A stretch of 24,040 nt of DNA from a virus (lineage: Duplodnaviria; Heunggongvirae; Uroviricota; Caudoviricetes): the IMG/VR virus record IMGVR_UViG_2740892439_000001, positions 1 through 24,040 of that record. The stretch is one strand, 5' to 3'. Positions 15,803 through 24,040 of this stretch are shown here, in pieces. The notes beneath the pieces are model-generated. The model had not been told where the DNA came from. It ran no database searches and saw only the letters and a list, made by a program, of their open reading frames with translations. How positions within the stretch are numbered: the stretch's first letter is position 1; every line of letters begins with the position of its first letter. The position numbers and the translations under genes are program-made.

Positions 15803-16867
15803 ATGTCACAGAACTGGATGAGACATTTCGAGCTGCAGCTTGTGGACGGGAACGGTCAGGGAATTGAGCTAAGTGATTTCAAAGTCACCTTTACGATCGA
15901 CTGGTTCAACATCAGCAGCGCGTCCCGGGTAGGGACTATCAAAATTTATAACCTCTCGGCAGATACTGTGAACCGAATCACCGGGAAGGAATTTTCGAAA
16001 GTGCGGCTGATTGCCGGTTACGACGGTATCGCGCCGGAGGTGGCGGCAAGCGACGTCGGGACCGTGCGCGAAGTCGACGCGGCAGATGTGGGCCAGAGTG
16101 ATGGCCGCAACTACGGGCTGATTTTCAGCGGAGAAATTCGCTACTCGGTCACAGGAAAAGACAGCCCTATTGATTCCTATGTCCTGATTCAGGCAGCAGA
16201 TACGGATCTGGCATTTGCCACCAGTATAACCTCACAGACGCTGGCTGCCGGTTACACGGTCGCTGATGTGAACCGTGCGCTGATGAAAGACTTCGAAGCC
16301 AAAGGCGCGACCGAAGGCCTGACGCCTGAAATGCCTGCTACTGTATTCCCCCGGGGGCGGGTGCTCTTTGGCATGACGCGGCATCTTATGGATAACGTAG
16401 CCGGGCAATGTGGCGCAACATGGCAATTCGTGGACGGTCAACGCCAGATGGTGGCGAATAACGAATATGTTCATGAAGCGATTGTGCTCAACAGCGCCAC
16501 CGGGCTTATCGGCATGCCGCAGCAGACTATCGGCAACGGCGTAAACGTCCGCGCGCTTATTAATCCGAACATCCGGGTTAATGGGCTCATTCAACTGGAT
16601 CAGGCTTCCGTATATCGCACCGCGTTGTCGAACAACGATATTGCGATGGCTGGTGGGCAGATCACCGACCAGAACACGGACGGAAATATCACGCTAAGCG
16701 GCACCACAGCACAACCTGCCAGCATCGCAACGGATGGCGTTTATATTGTGCGCGGGATTATGTACACTGGCGATACAAGGGGCCAGGCGTGGTACATGGA
16801 TATGATGTGCGAAGCGCGTGGCGCGGCGGATCTTCAAAGTCAAGGAGCAATGAATCGGTGGGGATAA
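15803..16867 (+). CDS. Baseplate hub-like protein
   Basis: 354 aa; position between the tape-measure-distal genes and the central spike. Confidence 0.5.
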   Translation: MSQNWMRHFELQLVDGNGQGIELSDFKVTFTIDWFNISSASRVGTIKIYNLSADTVNRITGKEFSKVRLIAGYDGIAPEVAASDVGTVREVDAADVGQSDGRNYGLIFSGEIRYSVTGKDSPIDSYVLIQAADTDLAFATSITSQTLAAGYTVADVNRALMKDFEAKGATEGLTPEMPATVFPRGRVLFGMTRHLMDNVAGQCGATWQFVDGQRQMVANNEYVHEAIVLNSATGLIGMPQQTIGNGVNVRALINPNIRVNGLIQLDQASVYRTALSNNDIAMAGGQITDQNTDGNITLSGTTAQPASIATDGVYIVRGIMYTGDTRGQAWYMDMMCEARGAADLQSQGAMNRWG

Positions 16868-16869
16868 GA

Positions 16870-17400
16870 TTGAATAAGAAAGCCATTTTTATTGCAATAA
16901 GTTTACTTGTTCCGATGTCGGGATTAGCCGCTCCTGGGAAGTATGAAAAAATGGCTGTTGATTTAATGGATCAGCAAAAGTTTACGCAGTGGCAACATTA
17001 CGCCTCTGCTACTCCTTTTTTCGCTATGAATGGTCGCAGATTCGCCATGACCATTGATGATTTCGCGGATATAGTCAGCAACTCCTTTCAAGAATGCGAA
17101 GATCTGGATGCCTACACCAATCGGAAAGGAACTACGGATGATTGTAAGTCCTATGTTTACAAAGGCATAAAGGAGTGGGTAAACCTCTCTCAAGATAAGT
17201 CTGTTAGCGATACAGCATGGAAAATGGGCCAGCGCTATGCTTCAACACACGTAATCCTATTGCCCATAAAAACGCATGGGATTTCAATGGGATGGCGGCC
17301 GGTATTCGCGTTGCTAAATCTCAAGGTTATTAAGTCATGGATGCGCCGAAAATCATCGGATCTTTCCCGTGTAAAAAAGTGGCTGGGCGATGATTTTTGA
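16870..17400 (+). CDS. Accessory secreted protein with N-terminal signal peptide (function unknown)
   Basis: TTG start with a ggtgggga SD 6 nt upstream; N-terminus (M)NKKAIFIAISLLVPMSGLAAPG is a typical Sec signal; mature part has two Cys; about 33 percent GC in the first 60 nt versus about 70 percent in sampled structural-gene sequence. Confidence 0.55.
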   Translation: MNKKAIFIAISLLVPMSGLAAPGKYEKMAVDLMDQQKFTQWQHYASATPFFAMNGRRFAMTIDDFADIVSNSFQECEDLDAYTNRKGTTDDCKSYVYKGIKEWVNLSQDKSVSDTAWKMGQRYASTHVILLPIKTHGISMGWRPVFALLNLKVIKSWMRRKSSDLSRVKKWLGDDF

Positions 17401-17558
17401 CGTCCATAATATTATGGATGAACTGTTGCCAATTGCGCTAATTTTAACAAAATAATACTGGTTAACGCATTTTTTGAACCATCTGTACACAGTAGTTGTC
17501 TATACTTTACCTTAAAGGTAAACTCTGCGCTCCACTGATGTTCACTATGGGAGGGGAT
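17401..17558 (+). promoter_or_regulatory. AT-rich intergenic region with promoter-like hexamers and two palindromes (17404-17417 and 17506-17522)
   Basis: ccataatattatgg is a perfect 14-bp palindrome; tttacctt-a-aaggtaaa has perfect 8-bp arms. Candidate sigma70 elements: ttgtct (17496-17501), 17-nt spacer, taaact (17519-17524). gggagggg SD precedes the ATG at 17559. Confidence 0.4.
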
Positions 17559-17798
17559 ATGAGGGAAATCGTTAATCGTTACTTAGCCGCTGCCGGTAGT
17601 GTTATGGACATTATGCCGACTACAGATTACTGGCAATATGCTGCTTCTGGATCTGATTGTCGGGCAATAAGAAGTGATGTTAAAGTCATTGCAAGTGACA
17701 TGAACAGAGTTATCAGGTATGAGTTCAAAACCCCGCAAGCAGGCGGCCGTTCTCAAAAAGCGTCAGGAAAACAAAGCGTCGCAAAAAGCCGTTCCTGA
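17559..17798 (+). CDS. Small hypothetical protein (accessory cassette)
   Basis: ATG at 17559 with a strong SD; about 80 aa; the last ~27 codons overlap the next gene and look low-complexity, so the true 3' end is uncertain. Confidence 0.4.
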   Translation: MREIVNRYLAAAGSVMDIMPTTDYWQYAASGSDCRAIRSDVKVIASDMNRVIRYEFKTPQAGGRSQKASGKQSVAKSRS

Positions 17799-18291
17799 TT
17801 CGGATGGTATCGACGAAAATATTGATTCCTCGGAATATGATGAGTCTCAGGAAGTAGTGGAAAAGCTGTCTGCAGTTGCCAACCTTGATCCTGAGCTAAA
17901 ATCGAAGTTAACACCTGAACTTCTTGAGAGAGTTTCTAAGAATCCGAAGGTTATTGCCATGTTTCAGCAGGAGTCTTTTCAGGGACCACTCCCACCTCCT
18001 GCTATGCTCTTACAATATAATCAAATATTACCCGGCGGCGCTGAGAGAATTTTCAGGCTAACCGAAAAAGAGCAAGAGCATAGGCATAAGACGCAAAGCG
18101 ATGCATTACTTGGTGCGGTTTCACGCGACAAACGTGGGCAATGGATGGGATTTTGCATTGCAATGGTAGTGCTTATAATGGCTGCGTTTTTTGCTAATCG
18201 CGGTAACACTTGGTTCGCAGGTACTCTTGCTACTTTAGATCTCGTAGGATTAACTACAGTGTTTGTTTATGGTAGGAAGAAACCTAAATAA
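17719..18291 (+). CDS. DUF2335-like membrane protein (charged N-terminal domain plus two C-terminal transmembrane helices)
   Basis: 190 aa; motif GPLPPPAMLLQYNQILPGGAERIFRLTEKEQEHRH recalled as the DUF2335 signature; hydrophobic stretches WMGFCIAMVVLIMAAFFA and WFAGTLATLDLVGLTTVFVY; followed by a terminator. Confidence 0.6.
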   Translation: MSSKPRKQAAVLKKRQENKASQKAVPDSDGIDENIDSSEYDESQEVVEKLSAVANLDPELKSKLTPELLERVSKNPKVIAMFQQESFQGPLPPPAMLLQYNQILPGGAERIFRLTEKEQEHRHKTQSDALLGAVSRDKRGQWMGFCIAMVVLIMAAFFANRGNTWFAGTLATLDLVGLTTVFVYGRKKPK

Positions 18292-18306
18292 TCCATACAT
18301 CCTTTC

Positions 18307-18329
18307 AAACCCGCTTCGGCGGGTTTTTT
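18307..18329 (+). terminator. Strong rho-independent terminator
   Basis: aaacccgc-ttcg-gcgggttt stem-loop followed by a T-run, 16 nt after the stop of the DUF2335-like gene. Confidence 0.75.
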
Positions 18330-18348
18330 GCTTTCTGGAGCCTACTAA

Positions 18349-19103
18349 ATGGCAGTATCTGACCAGACCCGCAGCGGCGACCTTGCCGAAACATTCAAAT
18401 CTGAACGGGAAACAACAAAGAACCAGATCCGAGTCGCTTTGCCTGGCATCGTCCAGTCATTCGATCCTGACGCTGTGACGGCGGTTGTGCAGCTTCTATC
18501 CGTTCGGTTGAAACGGATAACGACGGCAATCGCGTTACCAAAAATTACCCGCTGCTGGTGGATGTGCCGGTGGTATTCCCGCGCGGCGGAGGCTGTACGT
18601 TGACTTTTCCGGTAAAAGCTGGGGATGAGTGTCTTGTCGTTTTTGCCGATCGTTGTATTGATTTCTGGTGGCAGAGCGGCGGGATACAGGAGACGATTGA
18701 TAACAGAATGCATGATTTATCGGATGCGTTCTGTATCGTCGGTCCGCAGTCTCTGGCGCAGAAAATCAGCGGAATCAGCACCAGCGCCGCGCAACTGCGT
18801 ACTGATGATGGCGCTGCGTTTGTGGAAGTGGCCGCAGGCCATAACATCACGGTTAAAACCCCCGGCGCGCTGACGGCGACAGCAGAAGGAGGAACCACGA
18901 TCACATCACCCACCATCACGCTAAACGGCAACGTGACAATAAACGGGAATCTCTCTCAGGGGATGGGCGAAAGCGGCGGCACCGCGACGATGCTTGGCCC
19001 TGTCACGGTGACTAACGATGTAAAAGCTGGTGGTAAGAGCCTGATGACGCACACGCACGGCGGAGTACAGACCGGCGGCGGTAACACAGGAGCGCCTAAC
19101 TGA
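18349..19103 (+). CDS. Baseplate central spike protein (gp138 / Mu gp45 / P2 gpV-like), interrupted by an apparent 1-nt indel near 18493-18497
   Basis: N-terminal ...IRVALPGIVQSFDPDAVTAVVQ (frame 1) and YPLLVDVPVVFPRGGGCTLTFPVKAGDECLVVFADRCIDFWW (frame 0) together form one OB-fold spike domain; Gly/Thr-rich beta-helix-like C-terminus; ggag SD before the ATG at 18349. Confidence 0.7.
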
Positions 19104-21422: not shown

Positions 21423-22291
21423 TGGCGACTAACGATTTTAAACCCTTCGCTACTGGTAGCGGGGCAAACGTATTATCACAGGCTGATTATGAAGCGCTAT
21501 CTGTACTGGCATCTGGTTTTCTTTCCGGCAAAGCCTCGTCAGCACAAGTAAATAAAGCACTACGGCAATCCTCTACAATTGCTGCCGTCCTTGCACAATT
21601 CATGGCGGATAGCACAGGAAGCGATGTCCTGGATAATGGGAACATTGCCACGTTACTAAATATTCTCAAGTCCGCACTTAATAATCAGGCAGAAGGACGC
21701 CTGCTCCGCATTCAGGTTTTTACCGCTAGCGGAGCATGGGTAAAAACTGCTGGCACTAAAAAAGTCAGAATTAAAGCATGGGGTGCAGGCGGTGGGGGTA
21801 AGGGAACAGACGTCGCAGGGACTGGTGCACCTAGTGGGGCGGGTGGTGCATATGTTGAGGGATTATATGACGTAAGCACCATTAATGGGGCGAATATCGT
21901 TATTGGCGCTGGTGGCGCGGCAGTTGCAGCAGGGAATGCAGGGGATGGCGGTGATGGGGGAGACACTACCATTACCGCGTTGGGTATCTCTGCTGGCGGT
22001 GGTAAGGGGGGAAAGTCTGCTGGTAATTCTGCTGGCGGAATTCCGGGAGCTCCATCTGTTGGGACAATATTCTCAGTGGCTGGTCAGGGAGGACAGGGAG
22101 GATCAGGTGTAAGCCTGGGTGGTGTAGGTGGCGCATCGCACAGTAGTTATGGTGGCCTTCCACACGTTAGTTCATCCGGTGATGATGGATTTTTCCCTGG
22201 TGGAGGTGGTGCTGGCGCATCATATGACTCAATCGCCAGGGCATCAGGGAAGGGCGCTAACGGCTATGTCATCATTGAGGAGTACGCATAA
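21422..22291 (+). CDS. Tail fiber protein with glycine-rich C-terminal domain
   Basis: Start at ATG 21422 (MATNDFKPFATGSGANVLSQADYEAL is a typical tail fiber N-terminus); residues ~120-280 are mostly Gly/Ala/Ser. Confidence 0.65.
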   Translation: MATNDFKPFATGSGANVLSQADYEALSVLASGFLSGKASSAQVNKALRQSSTIAAVLAQFMADSTGSDVLDNGNIATLLNILKSALNNQAEGRLLRIQVFTASGAWVKTAGTKKVRIKAWGAGGGGKGTDVAGTGAPSGAGGAYVEGLYDVSTINGANIVIGAGGAAVAAGNAGDGGDGGDTTITALGISAGGGKGGKSAGNSAGGIPGAPSVGTIFSVAGQGGQGGSGVSLGGVGGASHSSYGGLPHVSSSGDDGFFPGGGGAGASYDSIARASGKGANGYVIIEEYA

Positions 22292-22488
22292 TGGCAGGTA
22301 ATTACGCAGTCATTGAAAGTGGAATAGTTAAAAACATCATAATTGCGGAAAGCGGTTATGAATATGATGGTGCTGAACTTATCGAATATCCTGAAAGTGT
22401 ATTTTGCCAGCCTGGGATGTTTTATAACAAGGCAGACGGGCTATTTTACGATGATAAAGAATATTCAAAAATAAATAGCAAGAATTAA
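22291..22488 (+). CDS. Small hypothetical protein downstream of the tail fiber (possible fiber assembly/accessory factor)
   Basis: 65 aa, TAATG coupling, AT-rich. Confidence 0.4.
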   Translation: MAGNYAVIESGIVKNIIIAESGYEYDGAELIEYPESVFCQPGMFYNKADGLFYDDKEYSKINSKN

Positions 22489-22512
22489 GTCACTAAATTA
22501 CCAGAAAGCAAA

Positions 22513-22534
22513 CTGACCTTATGGTCGGTTTTTT
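22513..22534 (+). terminator. Putative intrinsic terminator
   Basis: ctgacc-ttat-ggtcgg stem (6 bp with one G-U) followed by ttttttatt. Confidence 0.45.
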
Positions 22535-22546
22535 ATTGGGGCGACC

Positions 22547-24040
22547 ATGAGTGAATACGATACCGGCAATCCTGTGCCGTCTGCATCCATGCCTGATGCA
22601 TGGGATAATATGCAGTCTATTGACAAGTTCGTTAATAGCAGTGATGAAACCATTACCACACGCACAGGCAAACAGTTAGATACTTTGCATGGCGTTAATG
22701 TTAAAGCGGACAACCAGCTAACGCAGCAGCAAGCAGATTTTGAAACCTCGCAAGAAGAAAGGGATGCTGTAGTTGAGGAAACCAGGCAGAACCTGATCCC
22801 TCTCAGCCGGCAGTACATGACGCTGGCGGCGGCACAGGCAGATATTGCTAATATACCTGTTAATTCGTTCACATATGTGCGGGATCAGTCTGGTGATGCT
22901 CTGGCGTTAGAGTACAAAAACGTAGAGGGCACTTTAACGGCTACTGGTCGTAAAATGCCATCACAGCAATCTGTAGATGATGTTTATGCTTTCATAGCTG
23001 ATAACGATATATTGTCTCCTGGTAGAAATATTTATAATTATCGTAAATCAATTGATGGCAAATACCTTAATGAACAGGGTGTTATAAGTGACAACCCGAT
23101 ATATTTCCTTTCTGATTACATGATGGTAAGTCCTGCAATGCAGGTGGCATCAAATTACAACTTGAGATTTGTACACTTTTTCGATGAACAGAATAACCTA
23201 CTAAGCTATTTAACTTTTGTCACGCAGTTTACAACACCATCAAACGCTCGTTATATACGTATCACTGGAGGAATTGACTCCAAAACCCTTTTGCAAATAG
23301 AGGCAGGGCCATTAAAAACCGCGTTTAAATATTATCGTAAATATATTTCTGAAACTCTCCCTGATGGAACTCCAGTTTCAGCAAAAAAAATAATGGGAGT
23401 AACTCCTGGGAAAAACAAGTTTAACAAGGCAACAGCAACGCAGGGATACGCAATTAATGAAAATGGAGAGCTAATCGTTGCCTCAACTTACTTTGTCTCA
23501 GACTACATTAAAGTCACTGCCGGCGGAACATTGAGGCCTTCCCAGCCAGCGCGATATATTAACTTTTATGATGCCAATAAAACATGGCTGTCGTCTCTCC
23601 AGAATCAAAATGGGGCGTTCGCAGTGCCTTCCTCTGCGGCATATCTTCGCATTTCAGTGCTGCTTGCGAGAATCGATTACTTCCAGATTGAGGTTGGAAG
23701 TAAGATGACAGCCTACGAGCCTTACTCACTCACGGCAGCAACTTCGCTTGACGGTGATGGGTTAAAGTATCCGGTGAATGAGCCAGATATCTATAGTATT
23801 GGCCTGTTCAATGCTGGAAAGAATATTTATAACCCCTATACACTGACCGCTGGTTATATCGATGAGAATGGTTTTGTTGTTCCGGGTGGAACGACATATA
23901 AATTTTCTGACTATCTTCCAGTTAAAGCATCAACGGGGTATGTAGGAAATAAAAGCATGCGCTTCATAAACATTTATGATGCGGATAAAGCGTTTATTTC
24001 GACTCTTACCAGCACGACAACATTCACAACCCCGTCTAAT
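22547..24040 (+). CDS. Distal tail fiber / receptor-binding-like protein, 3'-truncated by the window end, with tandem ~130-aa repeats
   Basis: Hand translation from ATG 22547 is open to 24040 (498 codons); absent from the ORF track, which appears to list only ORFs with an in-window stop. About 37 percent GC in a sampled 60-nt stretch. Repeats start near 23057, 23444 and 23849. Confidence 0.6.
   Translation, partial: MSEYDTGNPVPSASMPDAWDNMQSIDKFVNSSDETITTRTGKQLDTLHGVNVKADNQLTQQQADFETSQEERDAVVEETRQNLIPLSRQYMTLAAAQADIANIPVNSFTYVRDQSGDALALEYKNVEGTLTATGRKMPSQQSVDDVYAFIADNDILSPGRNIYNYRKSIDGKYLNEQGVISDNPIYFLSDYMMVSPAMQVASNYNLRFVHFFDEQNNLLSYLTFVTQFTTPSNARYIRITGGIDSKTLLQIEAGPLKTAFKYYRKYISETLPDGTPVSAKKIMGVTPGKNKFNKATATQGYAINENGELIVASTYFVSDYIKVTAGGTLRPSQPARYINFYDANKTWLSSLQNQNGAFAVPSSAAYLRISVLLARIDYFQIEVGSKMTAYEPYSLTAATSLDGDGLKYPVNEPDIYSIGLFNAGKNIYNPYTLTAGYIDENGFVVPGGTTYKFSDYLPVKASTGYVGNKSMRFINIYDADKAFISTLTSTTTFTTPSN

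Follow-up and report, generated by a model that had tools for sequence, protein, structure and literature searches.

A two-slot accessory hotspot between the baseplate hub and spike genes of a Brunovirus-like prophage, and the small protein-DUF2335 gene pair that it carries

The stretch of DNA analysed here, referred to below as the window, is the 24,040-nucleotide IMG/VR virus sequence IMGVR_UViG_2740892439_000001 (positions 1 to 24,040), and our subject is the run of small genes that lies between its baseplate hub gene and its central spike gene. Comparison with related phages demonstrated that this region is a hotspot with two independently exchanged slots and conserved boundaries. In the window the second slot is occupied by a gene for a small protein and a gene for a membrane protein of the DUF2335 family (DUF, domain of unknown function), and these two form a conserved mobile two-gene module, as evidenced by their linkage and by natural Rosetta-stone fusions. 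The window unit is organised like a moron at a phage accessory hotspot and stands outside the characterised exclusion, abortive infection (Abi), toxin-antitoxin (TA) and holin families. A first-pass annotation, made from the window alone, had described an AT-rich, self-contained three-gene cassette of foreign composition inserted in the baseplate operon. That proposal is partly supported: the accessory-moron idea holds, the self-contained three-gene cassette of foreign composition does not. Cassette borders and gene ends taken from the single sequence had misled, and it was the comparison across relatives that revealed the slots, a gene remnant and probable assembly frameshifts.

Two exchangeable slots with conserved boundaries

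A Megablast search with the cassette returned nothing from 50,697 phage records, and the flanks were used as the search query instead. The comparison set comprised 80 IMG/VR loci, in which the hub protein is conserved at 96-99% amino-acid identity, together with six annotated records and the window; 84 loci entered the counts, and slots were defined by clustering the open reading frames (ORFs) of the hub-spike interval. In window coordinates, the features of the region are:

15803..16867, plus strand: baseplate hub gene, which anchors the hotspot in the backbone on the left; Pfam E217_GP41 matched weakly (7.3e-05)
16870..17333, plus strand: gene A, exported signal-peptide protein, 154 amino acids in relatives; TTG start 2 nt past the hub stop
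17337..17393, plus strand: S1a remnant, the last 18 codons (MDAPKIIGSFPCKKVAGR) and stop of the slot-1 gene S1a; marks the junction of slots 1 and 2
about 17391-18303: slot 2, which holds one of at least 13 alternative cargoes, some loci having no cargo
17391..17558, no strand assigned: AT-rich leader of the slot-2 cargo, GC 0.363, with two perfect palindromes and a GGAGG ribosome-binding site at 17550-17554
17559..17798, plus strand: small partner protein, 79 amino acids, of which about the first 55 are conserved; matches phrog_26284, an unknown-function family (5.9e-12), and overlaps the DUF2335 gene by 80 nt
17719..18291, plus strand: DUF2335 inner-membrane protein, 190 amino acids; Pfam PF10097 and phrog_3996 ('membrane protein, moron', 1.1e-46)
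18307..18332, plus strand: intrinsic terminator, 8-bp stem with 5 G-C pairs, loop TTCG and T-run; hairpin at 18307-18326, about 20 nt before the spike start
18349..19103, plus strand: central spike gene with Gp138-type N-domain and Apex motif, Pfam matching both halves; right backbone anchor

The distance from hub stop to spike start ranged from 402 to 1897 nt in the 84 loci, which is at odds with the earlier assumption that these two genes are normally adjacent. More distant relatives, namely SEN34, Yersinia phage YP3, Klebsiella phage Mulock and Klebsiella prophages, also carry an exported or membrane protein and one to three further genes at the site, and we therefore conclude that hub and spike are never adjacent in this lineage.

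Slot 1 starts 2-3 nt past the hub stop and has three unrelated alternatives, each encoding an exported protein: S1a, a 118-amino-acid protein with a signal peptide ending AFA (67 loci), gene A, with its 154 residues (11 loci including the window), and a 241-residue lipoprotein with an LTSC lipobox (6 loci). Slot 2 is far more varied. Its commonest cargo, present in 32 of the 84 loci, is a weakly HEPN-like protein of 142 amino acids (weak HEPN_IX match) accompanied by any of three upstream partners, followed by a 79-residue DUF4282 membrane protein (12 loci), the small protein and DUF2335 pair (9 of 84), a 192-residue protein with a YafO toxin (3.9e-17; 7 loci) and a membrane protein with weak PycTM similarity (3 loci); there are also several singletons, and some loci are without a cargo. 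The three partners of the HEPN-like protein are unrelated to each other (243, 256-266 and 266-276 amino acids, in loci L003, L027, L083 and other IMG/VR loci) and none has a family match; this looks like a modular two-gene system in its own right, whose partners can be exchanged.

The two slots assort independently, since loci combine them in various ways. The DUF2335 pair is accompanied by gene A in six loci and by S1a in three, and gene A itself is found with DUF2335, with YafO, with the HEPN-like protein, with another cargo or with none. The three plus-strand ORFs of the first-pass annotation are all present where it had placed them; they are not, however, a self-contained unit, as gene A and the pair are exchanged separately, gene A has no upstream region of its own and the terminator is shared. 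The conclusion that these genes are accessory rather than baseplate parts was well founded, given that no fewer than 13 unrelated cargoes alternate here beside hubs that are mostly 96-99% identical. The same three genes are not universal at the site in related phages. Gene A carries a signal peptide, the DUF2335 protein is predicted to be membrane-embedded, and Pfam and PHROG returned no structural-family matches.

The borders of exchange could be placed to within a few nucleotides. Nucleotide homology of the window to loci with other cargoes stops at 17386-17390 and resumes at 18304-18307, and the loci that combine S1a with the small protein and DUF2335 align to the window from 17336 onward at 99.3%. 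The peptide of the S1a remnant is the end of the 118-residue S1a protein of the 67 loci and lies directly downstream of the gene A stop (17331-17333), which indicates that gene A displaced most of S1a by recombination. Each slot-2 cargo comes with its own non-coding leader of 100-230 nt; slot-1 genes have none. Slot 1 would be translationally coupled to the hub gene, and it always supplies an envelope-exported protein; slot 2 would be organised as a classical moron of AT-rich leader, cargo and terminator.

The terminator sets the right-hand boundary. Within the 75 nt before the spike start, an ACCCGCC-loop-GGCGGGT hairpin, a T-run and GCTTTCTGGAGCCTAC-ATG are present in 82 of the 84 loci, whatever the cargo and with loops that vary, and a terminator is also found in a Prodigiosinella relative. 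Because it is common to all cargo variants it belongs to the hotspot backbone; the earlier description of a strong terminator ending the unit was right about the hairpin and its T-run and wrong in assigning them to the cargo. In the lysogen it would stop cargo transcripts before the spike gene, an essential late gene, and in lytic growth a Q-modified polymerase may read through it. The Q gene was seen in the close prophage of Escherichia coli strain CFS3246, not in the window. Locus L086 has another stem sequence (GGCCGCTATTAAGTGGCC) with the same hairpin and T-run structure, a replacement that suggests selection for termination rather than for sequence. An Rfam scan gave nothing at gathering score; a sub-threshold rsmX match at 18249-18329 (27.1 bits against a gathering score of 56, E 0.012) is no real small-RNA call and is probably driven by the terminator hairpin within it.

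Gene A as read in the window runs from 16870 to 17400 and encodes 176 amino acids, with the frame shifted after 17239. In relatives the gene has 465 nt, and alignment with loci L001-L003 shows that the window is without one C of a CC run at 17239. The Sec-signal protein proposed for 16870-17400 is indeed an exported protein, but its 3' end is an artefact, relatives having their stop at 17331-17333. Against the 98%-identical CFS3246 prophage, each single-nucleotide length difference is a deletion in the window within a G/C run (13420, 13424, 14215, 17239 and 18492; also 3345 and 3554). As a result the tape-measure gene is read as three ORFs, gene A changes frame, and the spike gene, which in relatives is intact at 753-756 nt, is cut into two ORFs at the 1-nt deletion in a CC run at 18492. 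As all of the length differences are G/C-run deletions, assembly or basecalling error is favoured over pseudogenisation, and the gene A frameshift is probably an assembly error.

Homologs of gene A (n = 14, 52-98% identity) come from Klebsiella, Raoultella, Yersinia, Citrobacter and Prodigiosinella and adjoin the hub directly in every context examined. Their signal peptides vary, the mature domain is well conserved with two invariant cysteines, and the C-terminal motif WDFNG...GIRVAKS.GY is invariant; the product is probably periplasmic with a disulfide bond. An AlphaFold2 (AF2) model of good quality (pLDDT 83.7, pTM 0.75) had no informative fold match, and Pfam, PADLOC, PHROG and NCBIfam gave no family match. 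Because an exported protein is encoded here beside tail-tip genes, we would conjecture by analogy that gene A is a periplasmic exclusion factor like Cor, Llp or T4 Spackle. The tape-measure protein of the Brunovirus-like family carries an SLT lytic-transglycosylase domain (L100 57-2054; L002/L103), and this raises the further conjecture that exported slot-1 proteins inhibit incoming tails in the manner of Spackle.

The small protein and DUF2335 as a conserved module

The DUF2335 assignment of the third gene is secure: the PF10097 match (residues 92-141) scores 66.6 bits against a cutoff of 25, E 1.8e-18, making it a bona fide member of the family. Its N-terminus is charged, disordered and not conserved, and its start codon is uncertain because the Shine-Dalgarno sequence at 17719 is poor and an in-frame GTG near 17860 follows AGGAAG. 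The conserved segment reads SFxGPLPxP...Y..ILPGxAER...EKEQ...RGQW, with P92, P94, R110 and G140 invariant. In the AF2 model helices span residues 107-160 and 164-187 at pLDDT 84-90, flanked by RDKRGQW and RKKPK, the core having a pLDDT of about 85. The protein is accordingly predicted to consist of a cytoplasmic segment whose long helix runs on into a membrane hairpin of two helices with basic residues on either side, which agrees with the first-pass description of a DUF2335-like protein with two C-terminal transmembrane helices. Nothing in it points to an enzyme. Foldseek of the model against the PDB gave a best E of 2.0, simply a long helical hairpin, and a DUF2335 profile found 0 matches among PDB sequences. 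Across Pfam, NCBIfam and PADLOC nothing beyond DUF2335 was found for the three proteins, in agreement with the first-pass annotation, which had recognised no characterised defence or virulence protein among them.

A small ORF precedes the DUF2335 gene in almost every homolog context examined, usually overlapping it. The overlap is 80 nt in the window, 53 nt in Pseudomonas phage MD8, 50 nt in Prodigiosinella, 29 nt in Citrobacter and E. coli phage EC.W1-9 and 17 nt in Streptococcus phage Javan433; in Proteus there is a 3-nt gap. Programmed frameshifting within the 80-nt overlap to make a fusion protein was considered and dropped, since homologs range from an overlap of 80 nt to a 3-nt gap. A hidden Markov model (HMM) of the small protein, built from seven homologs, was searched against 9,978 ORFs of at least 30 amino acids in 92 loci. 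It matched 74 ORFs, and all of these lie directly upstream of a DUF2335 gene or form the N-terminus of a fused DUF2335 protein. Fused forms occur in Xenorhabdus (P0028-P0035) and one IMG/VR contig, with the motif MRHYFKVIGSILDIMPANDY joined directly to the DUF2335 core. In the loci that the HMM missed, the DUF2335 gene is likewise preceded by a small ORF that overlaps it and that carries a hydrophobic motif at its N-terminus and DWxxVGxDxxxA. No description of an obligate small partner or of fused forms was found in Pfam, NCBIfam or the literature searched.

The partner is easily overlooked by annotation. It is unannotated in E. coli KSC64 (L001 3035-3421; skipped by PGAP) and in Klebsiella phage RAH1 (L095 3443-3640), and in RAH1 similarity to the DUF2335 protein of the window sets in about 100 nt before the point at which the DUF2335 gene is annotated to start. 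One locus (L171 5109-6339) has tandem DUF2335 genes, and there the HMM matched the ORF upstream of the first copy alone. The label 'DUF2335 phospholipase', which we take to be, almost certainly, a slip for DUF2235/Tle1, could also mislead text-mined annotation of DUF2335. It is listed as a toxin domain in two papers on the type VI secretion system (bioRxiv 10.1101/2023.07.16.549128; PMC6267618). That literature is irrelevant here, DUF2335 being a 50-residue motif of membrane proteins.

The DUF2335 family is very large, and the pair itself is conserved in temperate phages of several phyla. A DUF2335 profile built from 40 homologs matched 16,667 representatives at 50% identity (E<=1e-3), the best-scoring 150 of which are 99-215 amino acids long. 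By tblastn the family was found in temperate phages of Klebsiella, Escherichia, Pseudomonas, Streptococcus, Lactococcus and Staphylococcus, and likewise of Lacticaseibacillus, Arthrobacter, Leptospira, Porphyromonas, Alteromonas and Ralstonia, so that the host phyla include Proteobacteria, Firmicutes, Actinobacteria, Bacteroidota and Spirochaetes. Matches in phage records and viral contigs were limited to temperate phages and prophages.

The positions of the module elsewhere are typical of accessory genes. In Proteus mirabilis prophages the pair lies immediately downstream of a cI-type repressor on the same strand, the rexAB position, and in a Xenorhabdus prophage remnant the module adjoins cro. 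In Citrobacter koseri the pair marks one end of a prophage, where GtrA/GtrB-like O-antigen genes adjoin it; in Pseudomonas phage MD8 it lies between integrase and tail-fibre genes; in Streptococcus Javan prophages it is placed past the lysin at the prophage end; and in Klebsiella phage RAH1 it is within the tail module, with an antirepressor as its neighbour. Over 57 distinct DUF2335 loci the two nearest genes on each side are mixed, comprising HTH_3/Peptidase_S24 repressors, KilA-N, Rha, P22_AR_N and ORF6N proteins, integrases, tape-measure proteins and spikes.

A prophage of Prodigiosinella confusarubida bears on the age of the arrangement. It has the window order of hub, A, small protein, DUF2335, terminator and spike, and its amino-acid identities to the window are 54% for A, 41% for the small protein and 55% for DUF2335, compared with 58% for the hub and 51% for the spike. 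Its accessory genes have a GC content of 0.39-0.44 against 0.52-0.58 in the backbone. Since the accessory genes are as diverged as the backbone, the combination is either old in the lineage or one that travels only among related phages, and it is no recent insertion of foreign genes.

Lower GC than in the flanks is real in the window as well, at 0.430 for the hub-spike interval against 0.547 for the hub and 0.558 for the spike, with a mean of 0.517 over the whole window. Of same-size stretches of the 24-kb sequence, 2.7% are equally AT-rich, and these are located at the far 3' end. The contrast first given, 33% against 70%, came from sampled 60-nt stretches and is wrong as a pair of averages (43% against 55%); at that scale GC spans 0.27-0.57 inside the region and 0.40-0.75 in the hub.

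Possible functions of the pair

The published moron definition of Juhala and Hendrix (as in PMC3594210) was examined here through presence/absence, GC, promoter and terminator. Genes at this site are replaced or absent in relatives, their GC is 0.425-0.43 against 0.55-0.56, and a terminator follows, albeit that of the hotspot; the atypical composition and closing terminator agree with the moron reading of the first-pass annotation. The pair would be transcribed from its own leader in the lysogen, and the small protein and DUF2335 protein would form one inner-membrane complex acting at the cytoplasmic membrane against incoming phages. By one route the complex may block genome entry, like HK97 gp15 or P22 SieA; by another it may collapse the membrane on infection, like RexAB. 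We regard an anti-phage role of the pair, whether superinfection exclusion or abortive infection, as the best of the explanations considered, though as a serious possibility rather than a probable one. It is suggested by the moron architecture (PMC3594210), by the company kept in slot 2 (YafO, HEPN-like and small membrane proteins), by the position downstream of cI in Proteus and by the restriction of viral matches to temperate phages and prophages. The fuller proposal is more doubtful. It holds that the pair is a two-component system of phage defence or exclusion, so far undescribed and very widespread (about 16,700 clusters at 50% identity, in temperate phages of five phyla), which prophages would carry and which would act at the cytoplasmic membrane, that the largely unannotated partner is an essential subunit and that the hub-spike site is a new defence hotspot whose other cargoes would be candidate systems too.

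Several observations weigh against an anti-phage role. A promoter in the leader is presumed, and of the promoter-like region with palindromes described earlier the palindromes stand (CCATAATATTATGG at 17404-17417, and TTTACCTT-A-AAGGTAAA at 17506-17522, within the 168-nt leader); a consensus scan for sigma-70-like promoters, however, found 4 matches against 4.2 expected in shuffled sequence, none was convincing by eye, and the sole promoter-like match in the leader is weak (TTGCCA-16-CAAAAT, 17426-17453, 9/12). PADLOC-DB v2.0.0 gave 0 families at E<=1 for the three proteins, and no similarity of fold or sequence to characterised superinfection-exclusion proteins (gp15/YebO, SieA, SieB, Imm, Cor, Llp and Ltp) or to Abi proteins was found. 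A PADLOC scan of 218 neighbours of DUF2335 genes returned mostly HTH-type models, with no clear enrichment of defence genes. It also should be considered that in Prodigiosinella the arrangement of gene A, small protein and DUF2335 has diverged in step with the backbone, and the cargo may therefore serve the phage itself. Finally, the one functional datum on DUF2335 found in the literature searched is a knockout of a DUF2335-domain gene in Dickeya zeae MS2, for which the section of the paper that presents it gives reduced potato maceration and no phage phenotype (PMC8809351).

A second explanation is that the pair is a TA-like addiction or stabilisation module, in which the DUF2335 hairpin would be a membrane toxin neutralised by the small protein; such a module would retain the prophage in its host and might double as an Abi trigger. 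The same slot does carry a YafO toxin and HEPN-like proteins, each with upstream partners, and a small overlapping, co-translated gene pair with the small gene first is what such a module would look like. The natural fusions of the small motif to DUF2335 nevertheless speak more for subunits of a single complex than for a toxin paired with an antidote, the conserved N-terminal motif of the small protein is hydrophobic rather than DNA-binding, and neither protein matches a TA family, whereas the YafO cargo is recognised in the same slot. We consider this explanation unlikely.

A third explanation, for which the Dickeya result speaks, is that the pair acts in lysogenic conversion without phage defence, as a membrane complex that would alter the envelope physiology, stress tolerance or virulence of the host. 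The Citrobacter copy beside gtr-type O-antigen modification genes and the exported proteins always encoded in slot 1 point the same way. Yet the lowered potato maceration is a single screen-level observation, given in that section with no mechanism or complementation (PMC8809351), the family occurs in temperate phages of Gram-positive and Gram-negative hosts, which argues against a host-specific virulence role, and the other slot cargoes are TA- or Abi-like, not virulence-like; overall we think this quite unlikely.

Least likely, in our view, is a lytic-cycle function, be it a lysis-timing or holin-like factor or a membrane factor for genome ejection or virion assembly: the pair is embedded in the late operon, co-diverged with hub and spike in the distant Prodigiosinella relative and has a two-transmembrane hairpin like that of class II holins, but it is clearly not required, given that E. 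coli phages whose hubs are 96-99% identical have unrelated cargo or none; it also sits at many unrelated genome positions including downstream of cI, is separated from the spike by a terminator and has no holin match in Pfam, and a full lysis cassette is present elsewhere in the close CFS3246 prophage.

Returning to an anti-phage role, it is useful to set the pair against systems already described. The rexA and rexB genes of lambda, co-transcribed with cI, provide abortive infection by means of two proteins, RexA, a soluble protein of 279 amino acids, and RexB, which has four transmembrane segments. The pair resembles them in comprising two proteins, one of them in the membrane, and in Proteus it occupies the same position downstream of cI; it differs in having no homology to either, and the window copy is in a tail operon, not an immunity region. 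In P22, sieA/immI is a membrane exclusion gene placed with antirepressor-type regulators inside the late genes. DUF2335 loci often adjoin KilA-N, Rha, P22_AR_N or ORF6N antirepressor-like genes in a similar manner, but SieA has no sequence similarity to DUF2335, whose anti-phage role is here a proposal.

As to the site itself, Rousset et al. reportedly described defence hotspots of P2-like phages and P4-like satellites in 2022, and phage hyper-variability hotspots have been described (bioRxiv 10.1101/2024.10.15.618418). In those hotspots, as at the hub-spike site, conserved core genes bracket the location and unrelated small systems replace one another in near-identical phages. The present site differs from those hotspots in its Brunovirus-like lineage, its hub-spike location, its two slots and its conserved terminator boundary, and also in that most of its cargoes are not recognised defence systems. 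The two-slot structure and the conserved terminator boundary appear to be undescribed in the libraries searched (Pfam, NCBIfam and literature).

HK97 gene 15, for which Cumby et al. (2012) showed prophage expression and a block to genome entry (reviewed in PMC3594210), is similar to the window unit in several respects: it is an accessory gene in a tail operon, has atypical GC and a terminator, codes for a small protein of the inner membrane and is missing in close relatives. Its product is YebO-like with a single transmembrane segment, however, whereas the window cargo consists of two genes, including a DUF2335 protein with two, and there is no sequence or family relationship; nor is the window terminator the cargo's own, being the shared boundary of the hotspot. 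The family entries of Pfam PF10097 and PHROG 3996, of which the third gene is a bona fide member, describe a single protein, and no partner was found in them.

If the anti-phage proposal is true, a very large domain-of-unknown-function family would acquire a function, together with an obligate partner and a model open to testing. The hub-spike site of this common prophage lineage of E. coli, Klebsiella and Salmonella would then be a compact place for new lysogen-expressed functions, with at least 13 cargoes of which most are unannotated. Should there be no phage phenotype, the unit would be an ordinary moron with a cargo of unassigned role.

The host phage and its flanking genes

The genes on either side of the region make up the baseplate module of an E. 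coli prophage, a temperate myovirus that is Brunovirus-like (Salmonella phage SEN34). The module is ordered as a Dit-like protein, a Pam3_gp18 plug, the E217_GP41-like hub, the Gp138-type spike with Apex motif, and homologs of the sheath initiator and baseplate J. The hub-to-spike stretch was matched in 353 of 5,426 complete E. coli genomes and was chromosomal every time; strains KSC64, PI24 and BEN2908 have a cassette identical to that of the window. The CFS3246 strain carries a complete prophage, 98% identical to the window, which is integrated beside yecD/aspS and has a lambdoid early region including the Q antiterminator; its holin, GH24 endolysin and lysis-protein (spanin) genes are kept together in a separate cassette.

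Homology of the window to this prophage ends at 22854. Positions 22200-24040 form a second low-GC stretch (0.36-0.46), and an ORF that begins at about 22547 runs past the end of the window, giving more than 490 amino acids with internal repeats of the form ...Y.SDY..V...; it is presumably a receptor-binding tailspike or fibre.

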